Shown: one piece after another, positions 12,366 to 38,878 of the stretch
Layout: each line of letters begins with the position of its first letter
Numbering within the stretch: the stretch's first letter is position 1
Virus record (IMG/VR): IMGVR_UViG_2737471833_000002
Direction: 5' to 3' (one strand)
Length of the DNA stretch: 64,000 bases
Source of the DNA: a virus
Taxonomy: Duplodnaviria; Heunggongvirae; Uroviricota; Caudoviricetes
Translations under genes and position numbers: made by a program
Notes under the pieces: generated by a model
What the model was told of the DNA's origin: nothing
Databases searched by the model: none
The model's input: only the letters and a program-made list of their open reading frames with translations

Positions 12366-12382
12366 ATTGCTCTAATTATTTT
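12366..12382 (+). promoter_or_regulatory. C1-repressor operator-like site
   Basis: ATTGCTCTAATTATTTT, 15/17 to the P1 C1 operator consensus; upstream of the c4/icd/ant region. Confidence 0.5.
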
Positions 12383-30503: not shown

Positions 30504-31401
30504 GCACTGGAAAAACATTACTATTTATAAACTTTCTCGTGAGGCGGATCTGACCGACTTAGAAGATAAAAAGAAAATGATCCTTTTCACGCCATGCGGT
30601 AGTCAGGATATGGCCAAGTTCGGTTTTGTATCTCCATTTGGTGATAATTCCGAAGTTATCGCTATGCATGGAAATGGTTTTATCCTTGTTGAAGCAAAGC
30701 GCGAAACAAAAATTCTTCCCCCGCCGGTTATCCAGCGAGCTATTCAAGAAAAAATTGAAAAACTTGAGCAAGAACAAGCGCGTAAACTGAAGAAAACAGA
30801 GAAGGACTCCCTGAAAGACGAAGTTCTGCATTCTCTTCTGCCACGGGCTTTTTCAAAGTTTTCTGTTATCCAGGCGATCTACGACGGTTCAACTAAACGT
30901 ATCTATATCAATGCCAGCGCGCGGCAGGCAGAGGATATGCTCGCGCTTATGCGTAAATCTCTGGGTTCTCTTCCTGTTGTGCCCCTAAGTGTTGAAAATC
31001 AAATTGAGTTAACGCTGACCGACTGGGTGCGTGATGGTAGTGCTCCGCAGGGATTTCAAATGGGGGATGCGGCAGAACTTAAGGCAGTGCTTGAGGATGG
31101 CGGTATTGCCCGAGTGAAAAAGCAGGACTTGGGAAGTGATGAAATATCCACACACCTGGAAGCTGGCAAGCTCGTCACTAAGTTGGCACTCGACTGGCAG
31201 AACCGCATTAAATTTACACTGGACCATAACTTCAGCCTTACCAGCGTCAAATTTGCGGATGAATTGCTTGAGCAGAACGCTGATATTGATAGTGAAGATG
31301 TTGCGCAGCGACTGGACGCAGATTTCTTCCTGTTGACCAGTGAAATTTCGTGCCTGGTTGATGCTCTGGTAAATGCCCTTGGCGGAGAGGCTAAGCAGTG
31401 A
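30496..31401 (+). CDS. rdgC: RdgC-like recombination-associated protein
   Basis: 302 aa from the internal ATG; near-collinear with E. coli RdgC ([48 protein letters not shown]). Confidence 0.85.
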
Positions 31402-34400
31402 AAGAGCTGTGCTACGGATCTGTTTGCAGTGGAATTGAAGCCGCGAGTATTGCCTGGGAACCGTTGGGTATGCGTCCGGCGTGGTTTGCTGAAATCGAGC
31501 CTTTTCCATCTGCCGTTCTTGCGCTCCGCTGGCCCCATGTCGCCAACCTTGGCGACATGACAAAACTTGCCAAAAAAGTCTTGGCTGGGGAAATCGAATC
31601 CCCTGACGTGCTCGTCGGGGGAACACCATGTTTTACCGCGGGGCATATGGTTCTTTGTAAAAATGGTTATAAACCAATAGAAGATGTTTGCCCTGGCGAT
31701 TACGTAGTCAGTCATCTCGGGCGGTTACAACAAGTAAAAAGAGTTGGTTCAAAAATAGCTAATACGGGGTTACTTAATGCCGTTGGGCAGCCTTTAGGTA
31801 TAAGAACAACCAATGACCATCCCTTCCTGGCTGTTCGGTGGAAAGCCCAAAACACCCGGAAAAATGGCACATATTTTAAGAGAGAGTTGTTGTCTGAACC
31901 GGAATGGCGAGCAGCATGTGATATGCCGGGATATCAATGGTGCGCTCTAACTAATTTCAATATTGCATCTCCAGATATTTGTTCTCGGTTCTTGTCTGAA
32001 GAACAGGCTATGTATCTTGCGGGCGCTTATGTAGGCGATGGATATATTAGGAGATGGAGAGGTAAATCTAAGAAGGCGGTTGTTTTTGGCATAAATTGCC
32101 AGAAATTGAGAAAGTTTCATTGCCACATACCAGAAAACATGTTTTCCGTGGCAAGCGAAATCCGAGGGAGCATCAAAGTAACCTTGAATGATACGTGTTA
32201 TGCCAATTGGCTTAATGAACATTTTGGCGAGTTAAGCCATGCTAAACGTATCCCTGCATGGGTGATGTCGCATCCATTGCGTCATGTGTTTTTACAAGGC
32301 TATCTTGATACTGATGGGACACCAAGTGGTAAAGCGGGATTTAGAATTAATAGTGTTAGTCCTGCGCTTGCTTGGGGCGTTGCGGGGTTGTCACAGACTT
32401 GTGGTTATGTTTCTTCGGTCAGCTTTATTGAAGTTGAGCCCAAAAAAGTGATCGAGGATCGCGTGGTAAATCAACGGGATTATTATCAGGTAACAATCTG
32501 CCCGCAGAAATTGTCACGTAAATCAAGATTGGCTCATGGAATGCTTTTACGAACAGTCAAAGAGTTTAAATCGGTAGGCCTAGATACTGTATACAACATA
32601 GAAGTCGAAGGTGATCATTCCTATATCCTCAATGGTGCGGTGGTCCATAACTGTCAGGCATTCAGTATCGCGGGATTACGTGGTGGGCTTGATGATGAGC
32701 GTGGCGCGCTAACTTTAAAGTATGTGGAGCTTGCAAATGCAATTGACGACAAACGGGCTGAGTCATTTCTCAAACCAGCCGTTATCGTCTGGGAAAATGT
32801 CCCAGGAGTCTTGTCATTGGCAGATAACGCCTTCGGATGTTTCCTTGCCGGATTGGCTGGAGAAGATGTGCCATTTGAACCAGGTGATCGACCTGAATCA
32901 GGAAAAAGCAACGCGTTCTGGCGGTGGGATGGCAAAACCGGTTGCCATGTTCCAAAGTGGCCGCAGTGTGGTTGTATTTATGGACCGCAGCGAAAGGTGG
33001 CCTGGAGAATCCTTGATGCCCAATACTTCGGAGTGGCACAACGACGCCGACGCGTGTTTGTTGTCGCAAGTGCTCGAACAGACCTCGATCCCGCAACGGT
33101 ACTTTTTGAGTTCGAAGGCGTGCGCCGGAATATTGCGCCGAGCCGAAAAAAGAAGGAAATCGCTTCCGCCATTATTGCAAATGGCGCTGCAATCAGTGGC
33201 GAAAGCCTAAATCCATGCCTACACGCTGGCATGTCTCCCGGTATGAAATCGACGAAAGCCGTAAACGGTTTCAGGATGGCGGCATTTGGGGAATATATTG
33301 ACGATGAAACCGCATCGACAGTAAAGGCAAGAGATTTTAAAGATGCCACTGACCTTGCCGTTTTTAGCAGCACAGGAGCAGGTTTTTGGTCAGAAGGGCA
33401 TGGTACATTGCGGGCACGTGAGCAAGAAAGCCATGAGCATCTTGTTACATTGGCTTTTCCTGAGCGTATGAGCGGTACACAACATGCTGCAACTAAGAAT
33501 ACTTCACCATCTCTAATGGCTAAAAATCCAACAGCTGTTTGCTATGAAGTAAGAAACGCAGAAGTAGCTGTCCGCCGTCTTACCCCTGTCGAATGTGAAA
33601 GGCTGCAAGGTTTTCCTGATGGGCATACGTTGATCCCGACGGAAAAGCGTAAAAAAGTTAATTCAGATGAACTGGCATATCTCCGCAATCACTATCCAGA
33701 TTTAAGCGAAGAAGAGGCCGCGATGCTTGCAGCTGACGGACCGCGTTACAAAGCGATCGGCAATAGTATGGCAATACCAGTAATGCGCTGGATTGGCGAT
33801 CGGATTACTAAGGCCGTATGTCGGCAGAAAGAAGGAAGTGAAACAAAAGAGCGAAAAGTTAAACCAGCGACAGAATTCGAACGGTCCATATTCAAATGGG
33901 CTGGTGGAAAATTTGGTGTTCTGGAACAAATCTTTCGCTATTTGCCAGAAGGGAAGCGCCTGATTGAACCTTTCGTTGGTGGCGGAGCTGTCTTCATGAA
34001 TGCCGGATACCAGGAAAATCTGCTAAATGATGTGAATGCTGACCTGATTAACTTTTACAAGACTCTGCAACGCGAGGCGCATTCACTTATCACTCTGGCA
34101 CATCGTTTCTTCCAGGACTACAACACACAGGAAGGATACCTGGCAGTACGGAATGCGTTTAACAAACAAGTCTATGATGATTTACATCGCGCAGCGGCGT
34201 TTTTGTTCCTGAACCGACATTGTTTTAACGGATTGACGCGTTACAACCAGGCCGGTGAGTTCAATGTCGGTTATGGGAAGTATAAAACTCCGTATTTCCC
34301 ATTACAGGAGATGGAAGCCTTCCTCGGTGCGGAAGGGCGGTCTGAGTTTGTATGCGGTGATTTTGCAGCGGTGATTGAAGCTGCCGGAGAAGGAGATGTC

Positions 34401-34685
34401 ATCTTTTGCGATCCGCCGTATGAACCGCTTCCAAATACAGAGGGATTCACGAACTATTCCGGTCATGACTTTAAGTTTGAAGAGCAAAAACGCCTGGTGT
34501 CTCTGTTGACGGATGCTCATCGTCGAGGTGCAAAGGTTCTCATTACTAACAGTGGCGCGCCAAACATCAGAGAGCTTTATCATGACAGTGGCTTCAGAGT
34601 GGAACCTCTTTTTGCCAGACGTTCTGTGTCTTGTAAGGGGGACACTCGAGGTGTAGCTCATGACGTTTTGGGTATATTGCTCTAA
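31398..34685 (+). CDS. dmt: bifunctional DNA methyltransferase (C5-cytosine domain plus Dam-like N6-adenine domain), interrupted by an intein
   Basis: GTG start overlapping the rdgC stop; CSGIEAAS (motif I), [12 protein letters not shown] split by the intein, VVWENVPG (ENV); C-terminal [10 protein letters not shown] and FCDPPYEP; extein 754 aa. Confidence 0.85.
31629..32651 (+). mobile_element. intein (Hint splicing domain plus LAGLIDADG homing endonuclease), 341 aa
   Basis: Begins [28 protein letters not shown]; block B TTNDHPF; [10 protein letters not shown] and [11 protein letters not shown]; ends [21 protein letters not shown] followed by Cys; excision restores [12 protein letters not shown]. 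Confidence 0.8.
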
Positions 34686-34692
34686 TAAATTT
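34676..34692 (+). promoter_or_regulatory. C1-repressor operator (perfect consensus match)
   Basis: ATTGCTCTAATAAATTT 17/17, overlapping the dmt stop codon; upstream of the tRNA/tciA/ban region. Confidence 0.55.
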
Positions 34693-34866
34693 ATTAGTGT
34701 AATATCACCTCAATGAATCGTGATTTATAGAGCGATTTAGCTGTTAGCCGCGACAGGCGCGGCGGTAAGCATGGCTGGGCCTAGTCCTCCCAGACAAACC
34801 ACCGAGTTGCCAGGTTGACCATGCGCCTAAGTGGCAACGCCGAAGTGCGTTACGAGCTTCCAGTTT

Positions 34867-34892
34867 GCCCATCTTCGGGTGGGCGTTTTTTT
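34867..34892 (+). terminator. rho-independent terminator-like hairpin
   Basis: GCCCA-TCTTCGG-TGGGC followed by GTTTTTTT. Confidence 0.45.
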
Positions 34893-35357
34893 CAGGGTTT
34901 TCGTCATGGTTAGCGACTTTGCGGCGGTTTAGAAACTGGCCATTAAAGTAAATGCAAACGATGATCTGATGATGGTAGCGGCCTAAGAAGCCAGATGCCA
35001 CGGGGTATGAGTCGTCCCCCGTCAAAAAATCGACCGCAGAGTGTCCCCGTCTGTGTATTAGGGAACGGGGAGGCACAACAGGTAAGGGCGCTGGTGTGAT
35101 TAACCAGATGAACGAGAAGGGGCCATCTGTTGGTCAGCGTCCTTTCCTGTTGCGTTTTCTTTTCAGCGTAACAGCGGTGCTTAACAGCACTTTGGGTACA
35201 GTTCCACGAATTTACGGGTATATCCCGTCATGCTGAAGGCGCTAATCACGCTGGAAGCCAGGGTTGTGCATCCCCTGTTACCGAATTGCAGCCAGGGCGC
35301 GGTGCGCCGAAAAGCATACGGAGGTGGAAGCCCTCGCCGGAGACGTACCCGGCAAGT

Positions 35358-35433
35358 GATGGTGTAGCTCAGCGGTTAGAGCGGTTGACTGTTAATCAAC
35401 GGGTCGATGGTTCAAATCCATCCACCATCGCCA
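35358..35433 (+). tRNA. tRNA-Asn (anticodon GUU)
   Basis: Cloverleaf: acceptor GATGGTG/CACCATC, D-arm GCTC-AGCGGTTA-GAGC, anticodon loop CTGTTAA, T-loop TTCAAAT, encoded CCA. Confidence 0.85.
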
Positions 35434-35435
35434 AT

Positions 35436-35511
35436 GCCGGTTTAGCTCAGTTGGTAGAGCGCCTGCCTTGTAAGCAGGATGTCAGCGGTTCGAGTCCGTT
35501 AATCGGCACCA
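35436..35511 (+). tRNA. tRNA-Thr (anticodon UGU)
   Basis: Cloverleaf: acceptor GCCGGTT/AATCGGC, anticodon stem CCTGC/GCAGG with loop CTTGTAA, T-loop TTCGAGT, encoded CCA; 2 nt after tRNA-Asn. Confidence 0.85.
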
Positions 35512-36442
35512 GCACAACAGGTAAGGGTATTTTGCGACGTCGGAGATCGCCGAGCTTGGCAGAGGGTTCGAATCCCTACGAAGTACCCTTACCGTTGTGA
35601 TGAATGCGCAGGCTGATGCGCGAAAGACATTGCAGCTATTGCGGAAAAGAGCTGTTCGGCGGGGCAATTAAACGCCCGTGAGAGTCTGAAATAACCGCAA
35701 GCCGGAGATCAGCACCGGTCATCACAACACAACAGGTAAGGGCATTCTCCCTTATGGGGCTTGGCTTAAATGCATCGAGTGCTCTTACCGTTGTGATGAA
35801 GTGCAGCTCTTTGAAGCAACCAGAAGATAAGCATCTGGCTTCACAACATAAACCGCAGGAACGACCAATAAACGGTAGTCCGTATGGAGAACACCCCGTT
35901 GAGGAAGAGGCCTGGCCGGAACCGTAACCGGCACTACAACGTTGAGAACACTGGCGTAACGGGGTCATATCCCAATCTACGAATAAATGTTGCGTTGCAG
36001 CGTGACAACCAGTGTTCTCAACATTGTGGTGAATGCACAGGCTGATGTGCCGCAACTACAGTAGTGCGCGCTTTGCGGGGCTTGCTACAACCCTGTGTTG
36101 GAGTTCAGCACCGACCATCACAGTTTGATTCTCTGGCATGAGCATAACGCTGAAATAAGTCCAGTCTGGTGCGGCCCGATCACCCGCCGTTAGCTCCACG
36201 AAACGGAGCACGTAACAGGTAAGAGCATTCTCCTGTAACGGGTTCATATCCCAATCTACAGGTCCACCAAGAATGCTCTTTCCGTTGCGGTGAATGCGGC
36301 TAAGCGCACGCGGGGAAATGGTTATATCTGTCCATTATTTCTCCTTGTTTCCACGTCCACGGTGGATAACCAGCCAAAGGACACCGGGAGGAACCCGGCA
36401 CCGCAATCTAATAAATATGTCACTTTTATTGAGGGATAACCA

Positions 36443-36877
36443 ATGTTCGGTAAATTGTTCGGCAAGAAAGTCGCTTCTGCAAAAGTAGAGCTGAAAAAAG
36501 TTGAGAATCGCGATCTGATGGAGGCCATTATCGGTGGCTGTTTGTTGGTGTCTGCCGCTGATGGTGAAATCGAAAAAGAAGAAACAGCGAAACTTGATCA
36601 GCTTGTCCGCTCTAATCCGCGTCTTAGTCATTTTGGTAACGAAATTACTGCAACAATTACCCGCTTTACCGAGCAACTTGAAGCTGGCTTCCGTGTTGGT
36701 CGCATGAATATCCTTCGCGAAATTGAAGATATCAAAAACGATCCAAAAGAAGCGGAAGAAGTATTCGTTAACATGCTGACAATTGCAGAAGCGGACGGTG
36801 AAATCGAGCCAGCAGAACACAAAGTACTGGAAGAAGTAGGCCGTCGTTTAGGTCTTCGTGTGGAAGATTATCTGTAA
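36443..36877 (+). CDS. tciA: TerB-family protein (P1 TciA-like)
   Basis: 144 aa with TerB-like repeated ...SAADGEIEKEE... and ...AEADGEIEPAE... motifs; RBS GAGGGA. Confidence 0.65.
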   Translation: MFGKLFGKKVASAKVELKKVENRDLMEAIIGGCLLVSAADGEIEKEETAKLDQLVRSNPRLSHFGNEITATITRFTEQLEAGFRVGRMNILREIEDIKNDPKEAEEVFVNMLTIAEADGEIEPAEHKVLEEVGRRLGLRVEDYL

Positions 36878-37041
36878 TGGCAAGCAAGGCACGTATCGCA
36901 ATCGCCATTGGTTTTCTCTTGCTGTCCGTGCTGGTGGATTTCACCAGCACAATCCTGTCAGTTTTATCGGACGGGGCGTTGGTGGCAGTAGCTGTAACAT
37001 TGGTATGGCCGATATTTAAAATAGCTTCGAAGGATCAGTGA
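36877..37041 (+). CDS. small membrane protein (54 aa)
   Basis: ATG overlaps the tciA stop (TAATG); MASKARIAIAIGFLLLSVLVDF...; below the 60-aa track cutoff. Confidence 0.4.
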   Translation: MASKARIAIAIGFLLLSVLVDFTSTILSVLSDGALVAVAVTLVWPIFKIASKDQ

Positions 37042-37160
37042 TGGGCTTCTGGGATTTTGCTGACAAGTATCCAATTGTTCTCATTATTATTGTTGCCATA
37101 GTTGTAGGCGGCATTGTTAGCGCCATTGAAGCACTTAGTAAACAGTAATCCGGCCCCTTA
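37041..37160 (+). CDS. small membrane peptide (39 aa)
   Basis: ATG overlaps the previous stop (TGATG); MGFWDFADKYPIVLIIIVAIVVGG...; 3' end overlaps tRNA-Ile by about 10 nt, so doubtful. Confidence 0.25.
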
Positions 37161-37226
37161 GCTCAGTGGTTAGAGCTGGCGACTCATAATCGCACGGTCA
37201 CCGGTTCAAGTCCGGTAGGGGCCACC
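37151..37226 (+). tRNA. tRNA with CAU anticodon, most similar to tRNA-Ile2 (lysidine-dependent)
   Basis: GGCCCCTTAGCTCAGTGGTTAGAGC...CTCATAA...TTCAAGT...AGGGGCCACCA; near-identical framework to E. coli ileX as I remember it; would default-annotate as tRNA-Met. Confidence 0.8.
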
Positions 37227-37513
37227 ATATTTGGTTGTAACACGGCGTCTGGCACATGCGTCGTTAGCGGTCTGGTGACGTTAAAAGGGGGGAACCTTGC
37301 CCCTAGCTCAGGCAACGAACCAGGTAGCCGGAATGTGCAAGCCACCGTTTGTTGTTTCTCGGGTAAAGGGATTCACCATCCTAGCGATTCGGTGTGACAG
37401 CCGGGAAGAGTCCGGCGCATTAATCCTGATTTTCTGGTGATGACTCATATCGTTAGGAGTGATTTGAGTATGCCGATTATATCTGACATTCAGCACGCCT
37501 GGGTGGAGTGCTA

Positions 37514-38878
37514 ATGTCTGCATCCCCTCTTGAATCCATGCCAAATTCCCTTAGTGCAGAACAAGCTGTACTTGGTGGCTTAATGCTTGATAACTGCCGC
37601 TGGGATGAAGTTGCAGATCGTATAGTTGCTGATGATTTTTATACCAGTGCTCATCGTGAAATTTTCAGTGAGATGGAGAGGTTATTAAGTCATGGCAAAC
37701 CGATTGATTTGATAACACTTGCTGAAGCACTTGAACAGAACGGTAAATTAGAACGCGCCGGTGGTTTTGCGTACCTTGCGGAGATGTCAAAGAACACGCC
37801 CAGCGCGGCAAATATTTGTGCTTATGCGGATATCGTTCGTGAACGCGCGGTTGTTCGTGAAATGATTTCCGTCGCAAATGAAATAGCCGAAGCTGGATAT
37901 GCGCAGGATGGCAGGGGCAGCAATGAATTGCTGGATATGGCCGAGCGCCGCGTTTTTGAAATAGTTGAAAAACGACAAAAGAGCGGTAGTGGTCCAAAAG
38001 ATATCGCCAGCATTCTCGATGCAACGGTATCTCGCATAGAAGAGTTGTTTCAGCGACCGCATGATGGTGTAACGGGGCTTGATACCGGATTTACCGATCT
38101 CAATAAGAAGACGGCAGGACTTCAGGCGTCCGATCTCATTATTGTCGCCGCCCGCCCATCGATGGGGAAGACTACGTTTGCGATGAATCTCGTCGAAAAT
38201 GCCGCAGTCCGTAACGATAAGCCCGTATTGGTTTTTAGCCTTGAGATGCCGAGCCACCAGCTGATGATGCGCTCACTGGCTTCTCTTGCACGCGTTGATC
38301 AGACTCGTATTCGAACAGGGCAACTTAACGACGAGGATTGGGCGCGGGTTTCTGGCGCAATGGGGATTCTGTTGGACAAGCAGAATATTTTTATTGATGA
38401 CTCAAGCGCCCTGACACCTACAGAGCTTCGTTCCCGCGCTCGTCGTGTTTATAAAGAAAATGGTGGTTTGAGCATGATTATGATCGACTACCTGCAACTT
38501 ATGCGCGTCCCCGAGCTGCAAGATAACCGAACGCTGGAAATTGCCGAGATTTCTCGCTCACTGAAGGCTTTGGCGAAGGAATTACAAGTACCGGTGGTGG
38601 CATTGTCACAACTTAATCGTTCACTTGAACAGCGTGCGGACAAACGACCGGTAAATTCAGATTTACGTGAATCAGGAGCAATTGAGCAGGACGCAGACCT
38701 GATCATGTTTCTGTATCGCGACGAAGTTTATCACCCGGATAGCGAAATGAAGGGCATTGCCGAGGTGATTATCGGTAAGCAACGAAATGGCCCAATTGGC
38801 ACGGTGAGATTGGCTTTTAACGGCCAATACTCACGGTTTGATAACTATGCTGGTGCTGACTGGCAAGAGGATTATTAA
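37514..38878 (+). CDS. ban: DnaB-family replicative DNA helicase (P1 Ban-like)
   Basis: About 454 aa from ATG 37514 (track starts at GTG 37508); Walker A ARPSMGKTTFA; collinear with E. coli DnaB. Confidence 0.9.
   Translation: MSASPLESMPNSLSAEQAVLGGLMLDNCRWDEVADRIVADDFYTSAHREIFSEMERLLSHGKPIDLITLAEALEQNGKLERAGGFAYLAEMSKNTPSAANICAYADIVRERAVVREMISVANEIAEAGYAQDGRGSNELLDMAERRVFEIVEKRQKSGSGPKDIASILDATVSRIEELFQRPHDGVTGLDTGFTDLNKKTAGLQASDLIIVAARPSMGKTTFAMNLVENAAVRNDKPVLVFSLEMPSHQLMMRSLASLARVDQTRIRTGQLNDEDWARVSGAMGILLDKQNIFIDDSSALTPTELRSRARRVYKENGGLSMIMIDYLQLMRVPELQDNRTLEIAEISRSLKALAKELQVPVVALSQLNRSLEQRADKRPVNSDLRESGAIEQDADLIMFLYRDEVYHPDSEMKGIAEVIIGKQRNGPIGTVRLAFNGQYSRFDNYAGADWQEDY

Follow-up and report, generated by a model that had tools for sequence, protein, structure and literature searches.

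The long form of DicF, a product of the dicBF operon of the Qin prophage, was reportedly described by Faubladier et al. in 1990. Northern blots and primer extension have revealed two DicF species of 53 nt and 190 nt sharing the DicF terminator end, of which the former has an RNase E-dependent 5'-end and the latter a 5'-end generated by RNase III; RNase E converts the 190-nt species to the 53-nt one, and the longer form accumulates upon inactivation of this enzyme (Ragunathan et al. 2023, PMC10448788; review PMC9438474). Here we analyzed a locus related to this RNA, positions 34676-34892 of a 64,000-nucleotide stretch of phage DNA (the window; IMG/VR record IMGVR_UViG_2737471833_000002), which contains the control region of the ban operon of phage P1. 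Although geneticists have relied on P1 for 70 years, the first 180 nt of its ban operon have so far been without an assigned RNA product. By its sequence the window is phage P1: over positions 34400-35600 it shares 99.7% identity with AF234172 and NC_005856, and 96% with phage P7.

Two further phage RNAs invite comparison. The put RNA of phage HK022 binds the zinc-binding domain of the RNA polymerase beta' subunit and suppresses termination in cis. Like the put sites putL and putR, the P1 element would be a structured promoter-proximal RNA of an early operon and would precede terminators that need read-through, but it differs in size and fold, and the HK022 immunity region contains no match to our covariance model of the element (R1, built on the family described below). 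StxS arises by early termination of the late PR' transcript of Stx phages; this terminated short transcript reportedly doubles as a regulatory RNA, while read-through expresses the operon (PMC7547250). The StxS promoter is reported to be always active and read-through to be achieved by antitermination, whereas the P1 promoter is under C1 repression and has no known antiterminator.

We consider it rather probable that the region 34676-34892 combines the control elements of the C1-repressed ban operon, operator and promoter, with its first ~181 transcribed bases, and that it is both a small RNA (sRNA) gene and an attenuator of the tRNA-tciABC-ban operon. A first-pass annotation, made from the sequence of the window, had offered a C1-controlled structured sRNA and a leader or attenuator as alternatives. 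Annotated operators and promoters, a covarying fold, homology to long DicF and a conserved terminator support this proposal; the two options are compatible and not exclusive, and probably both apply. Once C1 leaves the bivalent operator, the promoter P1ban would fire, as annotation and operator match indicate, from a predicted start near 34712. The nascent RNA would fold into a pseudoknotted domain (34747-34838) supported by covariation, and many transcripts would stop at 34892, as the strength of the terminator suggests, yielding a discrete RNA of ~181 nt. In analogy to DicF, RNase E would probably trim this RNA to a 3' sRNA of ~45 nt of the Hfq-binding kind. Read-through transcripts would be the source of the stable RNAs further downstream and of TciABC, tRNA-Ile and the Ban helicase. 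Accumulation of the discrete RNA appears likely to us; a function as a trans-acting sRNA is suggested tentatively.

The idea of an sRNA or leader at this locus is not wholly new. The record AF234172 already labels the bivalent operator as Obanab (formerly Op72ab), which 'controls expression of ban', and annotates P1ban, a predicted P2ban and a 'dicF-like region' (misc_feature, P1 68791-68892, + strand), which maps to 34800-34901 of the window. The P7 record contains the same operators and states that they control the tRNA genes and ban. New are a defined fold with covariation support, the identification of this fold, by sequence homology, with the 5' domain of long DicF, the wide distribution of the domain, and the prediction of a C1-controlled RNA of ~181 nt with a P1-specific 3' module.

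Relationship to long DicF

In the Qin prophage of K-12 the homologous copy is located between ydfC and dicB. It spans 2982-3119 of our Qin sequence (L003) and lies directly 5' of DicF (3122-3173; 76.7 bits with the Rfam model), the similarity at DNA level ending ~25 nt before DicF. Counting back from the DicF end at 3173-3178 places the start of the 190-nt species at ~2984-2989, just 5' of the outer helix P0 of the domain (G2990), by our own arithmetic; the paper gives the RNase III site in its own numbering (813/814). By this count, long DicF consists of the conserved domain, a spacer and DicF. The 137-nt 5' part of long DicF, until now viewed as a precursor tail, thereby gains a defined covarying fold, which most E. 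coli genomes carry and for which Rfam has no family.

The predicted primary transcript of P1 (~34712-34892, ~181 nt) may be regarded as a structural analogue of long DicF that would be made directly by initiation and termination. The 5' domains of the two RNAs are homologous (~77-80% identity over 95 nt) and share their helices and the pseudoknot. In each case a short single-stranded segment and an intrinsic terminator come next, and the lengths are similar (a predicted 181 nt in P1, 190 nt in Qin). Both are located at the head of a repressor-controlled early operon with downstream products tied to inhibition of cell division, namely DicB in Qin and, by homology only, TciA in P1. In contrast to long DicF, the P1 3' module is unrelated to DicF and is not matched by the Rfam DicF model RF00039, the 5'-end would be set by P1ban and not by RNase III cleavage, helix P0 on the outside is degenerate, and the repressor is C1 instead of DicA. 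With DicF proper the P1 3' module shares the position relative to the domain and the general build of an unpaired 5' part, terminator hairpin and U-tail. The two show no similarity in sequence or model, and the P1 hairpin is a short stem with a UUCG loop, unlike the long stem of DicF.

Structure and covariation of the conserved domain

The domain 34747-34838 (+ strand) of P1 consists of four helices, H1, P2, H2 and H3, and a pseudoknot. The helices were set by hand from compensatory changes seen by eye and then tested by pair counts; RNAalifold with default settings did not recover the structure from the family alignment. H1 (GCCGCG-ACAGG-CGCGGC, 34747-34763; 96% of alignment cells paired) corresponds to the GC-rich hairpin GCCGCGACAGGCGCGGC that had been named in the first-pass annotation and is now part of a conserved structure. 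P2 (34763-34766 with 34801-34804), in which a U-A pair is replaced by C-G in P7-type copies, encloses the 5' strand of the pseudoknot and the hairpin H2 (34775-34779 with 34789-34793), three pairs of which change on both sides. In H3 (34806-34812 with 34832-34838) six of eight pairs change on both sides, and its 19-nt loop holds the 3' strand of the pseudoknot. One pair of the pseudoknot (34769-34774 with 34819-34824) varies: P1 has C-G, most copies have U-A, and three have U.G. Variants of H3 are GUUGCCA/UGGCAAC in P1, GUUGUCA/UGACAAC in Qin and GUAACCA/UGGUUAC in Izhakiella, and those of H2 are CUGGG/CCCAG, CGGGG/CCCCG and CAGGUG/CACCUG.

Pair counts were derived from two alignments. Among 46 distinct copies aligned by MAFFT, 94.0% of the cells are paired and two-sided changes occur in 14 pairs, a result that none of 500 shuffles reached; moving the 3' partner by 1-3 columns left 29-55% paired. 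Realignment of 77 copies with model R1 yielded 95.8% paired cells, and 14 pairs with a total of 63 cells changing on both sides (again reached by none of 500 shuffles; 30-55% paired in the slid controls). The latter alignment leans towards the model by which it was made, so the count from the 46 copies is the more independent one.

The family is characterized by H1, P2, H2, H3, the pseudoknot that joins the internal loop of P2 to the loop of H3, and the invariant sequences GGCGCGGCGG.AAG.AUGG and CAGGUUGACCAU.CGC; loops and junctions are extremely conserved in sequence. P1 carries this signature of the conserved 5' domain of long DicF, as the family is defined here. It scores 97.2 bits with R1 (E = 6e-33, 34729-34864), a model built on the family itself, and all helices can form in P1. 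The outer helix P0 (GUUGUGGC with GCUGCAAC, or ACCACAAC) is good in the lambdoid copies and weak or absent in P1. P1-type copies carry mismatches and G.U pairs at this position, and in P1 at most a 4-bp AGCU/AGCU pairing is possible. The 5' leader of the predicted transcript (34712-34746, + strand) aligns by the covariance model with the lambdoid region that holds the P0 5' strand.

Distribution and genomic context of the domain

The segment 34748-34842 of the window resembles chromosomal DNA in 4428 out of 5426 complete E. coli genomes, with ~77-80% identity and a median of two places per genome. The domain was also found in many lambdoid phages, among them mEp460, cdtI, 2H10, Stx2c phages and an Actinobacillus phage, and further copies from IMG/VR and a set of one genome per species belong to Escherichia, Shigella, Citrobacter, Trabulsiella, Erwinia, Izhakiella and Serratia symbiotica. 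No Rfam family matches it. Each phage carries one copy. In all phages examined the element is located downstream of the repressor gene in the same orientation, which places it in the early-left operon. The first genes downstream of the lambdoid copies encode DicB, Kil or proteins of unknown function.

Every member of the family is followed within 12-57 nt by a hairpin and U-run of variable sequence. These 3' modules comprise DicF, DicF variants, a cdtI type and an Erwinia/Trabulsiella type.

C1 operator and promoters

C1-controlled operators of P1 are defined by the asymmetric 17-bp consensus ATTGCTCTAATAAATTT, bivalent ones by two overlapping inverted copies, as in Op72ab (Oban). At our locus, Oban-a (formerly Op72a; 34676-34692, + strand) matches the consensus at 17 out of 17 positions, and Oban-b (formerly Op72b; 34687-34703, - strand), the second half of the bivalent operator, at 15 out of 17. 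Oban-a is annotated in AF234172 and P7. It overlaps the -35 region of P1ban and, as noticed in the first reading of the window, the stop codon of dmt (31398-34685; TAA at 34683-34685). In the complete window, 11 operator-like sites with at most three mismatches were found versus 0.43 expected. The nine other sites, with 1-3 mismatches, are located at 12366, 14049, 30131, 44747, 48371, 48420, 50511, 60659 and 63965 and presumably are other known P1 operators.

The sigma-70 promoter P1ban (34677-34705, + strand) consists of the -35 box TTGCTC (34677-34682), a 17-bp spacer and the -10 box TAATAT (34700-34705). In our consensus scan P1ban reached 8/12 and thus fell below the cut-off of 9/12. A second promoter, P2ban (34660-34691, + strand; -35 at 34660-34665, -10 at 34686-34691), is predicted in the AF234172 annotation. 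From the position of the P1ban -10 box, we infer a transcription start near 34712, 35 nt 5' of H1. Operator and promoter are almost invariant across ~45 P1-like copies, and we regard their function as almost certain.

Terminator, spacer and coding potential

The strong intrinsic terminator reported in the first-pass annotation was recovered at 34867-34892 (+ strand). It is composed of the hairpin GCCCATC-TTCG-GGTGGGC (34867-34884) with a 7-bp stem and UUCG loop, followed by G and U7, and thus has the rho-independent layout of a G+C-rich hairpin directly before a U-run. The terminator scan counted 8 pairs including an outer G-T, 5 of them G-C, and a loop of 4 bases; the folding energy is -11.3 kcal/mol. 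Terminator-like sites overall are not enriched in the 4-kb region (6 versus 4.1 expected). The site at 34867-34892 is the strongest of them and is kept in P1, P7 and phage D6 as well as in ~45 P1-like copies. The T-run (34886-34892) comprises 6, 7 or 8 T among P1-like elements, 6 in the reference P1 and 7 in the window. Judged from these features the terminator is very likely active.

Between the domain and the terminator hairpin lies a 28-nt spacer, GCCGAAGUGCGUUACGAGCUUCCAGUUU (34839-34866, + strand), which occupies the position of the DicF 5' region and is a candidate seed. In ~45 P1-like copies it is nearly invariant except for its first base, while H2 diverges between P1 and P7 by compensatory changes. 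Such a pattern would be expected of a seed and suggests that the sequence of the spacer is under selection. In D6 and the lambdoid copies the spacer is replaced by other sequence. An Hfq-dependent sRNA of the 3'-end- or leader-derived type is characterized by a terminator hairpin with a U-tail of at least ~7, a preceding U-rich stretch, a single-stranded seed and Hfq binding. The sequence features of this class, as distinct from Hfq binding itself, are present in P1 (GUUU, hairpin, G and U7; U6-U8 among the copies). Our analysis predicts a C1-controlled P1 sRNA with a new seed.

The statement of the first-pass annotation that the interval has no credible open reading frame (ORF) holds. On the + strand merely TTG- or GTG-initiated frames of 32-33 aa are found, and the minus-strand frame is broken in relatives. 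This minus-strand ORF of 110 aa (34744-35076) was rejected, as it is frameshifted in P7 and D6; the difference of 6 versus 7 T in the T-run also disrupts it.

Searches with all Rfam families at a permissive E-value (33500-38500 and 34660-35360) gave nothing but chance-level matches within the element, namely RyhB (15.8 bits) and nuoG (17.6 bits) on the terminator hairpin.

Alternative interpretations

Several observations weigh against a combined sRNA gene and attenuator. A strong terminator 180 nt past the sole annotated ban promoter demands read-through that is unexplained. From the hairpin up to ban, the AF234172 annotation contains no + strand promoter; P1ban could therefore drive the tRNAs, tciABC and ban only by read-through of the hairpin, which raises the question how transcription passes a strong terminator to reach tRNAs and a replicative helicase. 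The outer helix P0 of the lambdoid copies is poor in P1. The single-sequence minimum free energy fold of 34712-34892 is unexceptional (z = -1.8) and differs from the covariation structure. The model RF00039, a 52-position covariance model with a threshold of at least 48 bits that detected DicF in the Qin positive control (76.7 bits), did not match 34660-35360 at E-values up to 10. The window contains no extended target complementary to the 28-nt spacer except the spacer itself. Phage D6 has the hairpin without the core, and the hairpin may thus functionally belong to the downstream RNA cluster. Finally, the literature search retrieved neither P1 transcript data nor a P1 transcriptome paper.

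The domain might merely be a scaffold for processing and stability that sets RNase III and RNase E cuts and protects neighboring RNA; the P1 RNA would then lack a trans function and the terminator would simply attenuate the operon. This is well compatible with Qin, where the domain lies between sites for RNase III and RNase E and loss of either enzyme alters the stability of the upstream mRNA (PMC10448788), and with the finding that family members lie in cassettes bracketed by complementary GUGCUCU / AGAGCA-type sequences. However, an RNase III-type stalk formed by these cassette flanks was rejected, since the pairings present in Qin and cdtI have energies no better than those of shuffled sequences, and the near-invariance of the P1 spacer during the drift of H2 suggests selection on the sequence of the spacer. 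We therefore regard this explanation as rather doubtful, albeit worth considering.

An action of the domain in cis on the transcribing RNA polymerase, comparable to HK022 put, would allow some polymerases past the terminator and on to the tRNAs and ban (in P1) or to dicB and kil (in the prophages), with the terminated RNA as a by-product. The domain is always located upstream of the first hairpin and U-run of an early operon, and according to annotation and literature ban, dicB and kil are expressed from the upstream promoter. No N-like antiterminator was recognized by PHROGs beside the lambdoid copies, and the extreme conservation of loops and junctions would suit binding to a conserved host machine. 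On the other hand, put is ~70 nt long with two stems (PMC9378689), while the domain comprises ~95-115 nt, folded into four to five helices plus a pseudoknot. There is only one copy per phage and no left/right pair, and in Qin the domain remains joined to DicF as a stable 190-nt RNA. R1 found no match in HK022 23-30 kb, the interval from IS903 to gene O, where the early promoters and both put sites are expected. Based on this search and the differences in size and fold, homology to put was rejected; to a similar function we assign a low probability.

A broader version of this idea, to which we likewise give little weight, is that the domain represents a new class of cis-acting RNA. Acting via RNA polymerase or a different conserved host factor, it would govern the choice between a stop at the next hairpin, with release of the sRNA, and continued transcription. 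The domain, which occurs in ~80% of complete E. coli genomes, would serve in this way both the ban leader of P1 and the early-left operons of Qin-type prophages, in which no N-like protein was recognized. If true, HK022 put would thereby gain a second counterpart that is structurally unrelated to it, and in P1 the continued transcription would enter the stable-RNA cluster including a tmRNA-like cassette (see below) and then ban.

It is quite improbable that the hairpin chiefly terminates the dmt unit or marks the 5' boundary of the downstream stable-RNA cluster and that the dicF-like homology is a functionless relic of recombination in P1. The hairpin is located 181 nt past the dmt stop codon, D6 retains it under a different upstream sequence, and lambdoid modules, one of them an STnc100-like piece (36286-36405), make up the P1 ban leader as a mosaic. 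Nevertheless, the compensatory changes between the P1 and P7 H2 helices, with all helices kept, indicate continuing selection on the fold, and the position of the promoter yields a transcript of nearly the size of long DicF. In place of the conserved domain, D6 (1150-1300 of our sequence L162) contains another G+C-rich element ~200 nt upstream of the shared hairpin. It ends in CCCCGCTGCAACGAAC, which resembles the P0 3' strand, and scores just 9 bits with the model.

A ligand-sensing aptamer that controls the terminator is very improbable. The pseudoknotted fold, its invariant junction nucleotides and the location upstream of an intrinsic terminator would suit a riboswitch, but the spacers to the terminator (12-57 nt) are unrelated between copies, terminator modules have been freely swapped, no Rfam riboswitch model matches, and sequence comparison revealed no conserved alternative pairing by which the aptamer 3' part would compete with an expression platform.

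Elements downstream of the terminator

Directly after the U-run, an unannotated cassette at 34896-35075 (+ strand) resembles the mRNA-like part of tmRNA. It is homologous to ORF-free DNA in 333 phage records, including Vi01-like, N4-like and T1-like phages and the late leader of HK620. None of the listed records annotates an RNA gene at the cassette; a minority contains only a hypothetical or structural-protein coding sequence. The cassette reads ...UUUAGAAAC...AUAAAU, followed by GCA AAC GAU GAU CUG AUG AUG GUA GCG GCC UAA, which encodes ANDDLMMVAA and a stop. The tag of E. coli tmRNA is ANDENYALAA. In all 130 of the 130 copies retrieved the frame has exactly 10 codons and fits A-N-[DE]-[DEN]-x-x-[LM]-x-[AV]-A, with many synonymous variants (ANDDVVLMAA is encoded in seven ways), and there is no start codon between GCA and an in-frame UAG eight codons upstream. 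The stop codon lies in a helix that is 99% paired, one pair being G-C in 28 and A-U in 27 copies. Two H-type pseudoknots with compensatory changes follow downstream of the tag.

By its sequence, this layout is that of the mRNA-like part of tmRNA. A complete tmRNA additionally has a tRNA-like domain, marked by a T-arm and a G.U pair in the acceptor. ARAGORN with default settings called no tmRNA on the cassette, and the Rfam model tmRNA_permuted remained below its gathering score of 47 (22.8 bits for P1, 33.4 bits for PD38). The search for a complete tRNA-like partner brought up only candidate T-arm elements, and no T-arm motif was found within ~1.5 kb of the HK620 and SG01 cassettes. A 2014 tmRNA census lists as phage entries just mycobacteriophages and Bacillus phage G, and beyond it our literature search retrieved nothing on phage tmRNA-like elements.

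One such candidate, at 35516-35612 (+ strand), is tRNA-like: it contains a canonical T-arm (AGGGTTCGAATCCCT) as well as a GCGA...TCGC hairpin, both within a 16-bp stalk formed by CACAACAGGTAAGGGTA and TACCCTTACCGTTGTG. The element overlaps the annotated minus-strand gene plp and was not called by ARAGORN. The same payload in this type of conserved stalk flanks the tmRNA-like cassette in contigs of T1-like phages. Together with the cassette, these T-arm elements are candidates for a two-piece tmRNA. The same stalk motif forms a long imperfect hairpin at 35078-35163 (+ strand; CAACAGGTAAGGGCGCTG ... CAGCGTCCTTTCCTGTTG), which gave false matches to Rfam microRNAs (mir-465, 24 bits). The motif GTGA(A/T)GAATGCGCAGGCTGATGCGCG follows stalk cassettes in P1 (35606-35625, + strand), the HK620 late leader (L133, ~1767-1790) and T1-like phages. 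A related motif, GGTGAATGCGGCT(A/G)AGCGCACGCGG, is located 3' of DicF in Qin and at 36289-36320 in P1.

The STnc100-like piece of P1 (36286-36405, + strand), just upstream of tciA, is a sub-threshold match to this prophage sRNA (38 bits, gathering score 47), and an STnc100-like region (34.4 bits, also sub-threshold) lies directly 3' of DicF in Qin. Hence, the P1 ban leader looks like a dicB-operon leader that was split by an inserted stable-RNA cluster. Further downstream, ARAGORN assigned tRNA-Met (CAT) to 37152-37227 (+ strand), where the P1 record has tRNA-Ile2 (CAT, similar to ileX), the CAT anticodon of which presumably is lysidine-modified.

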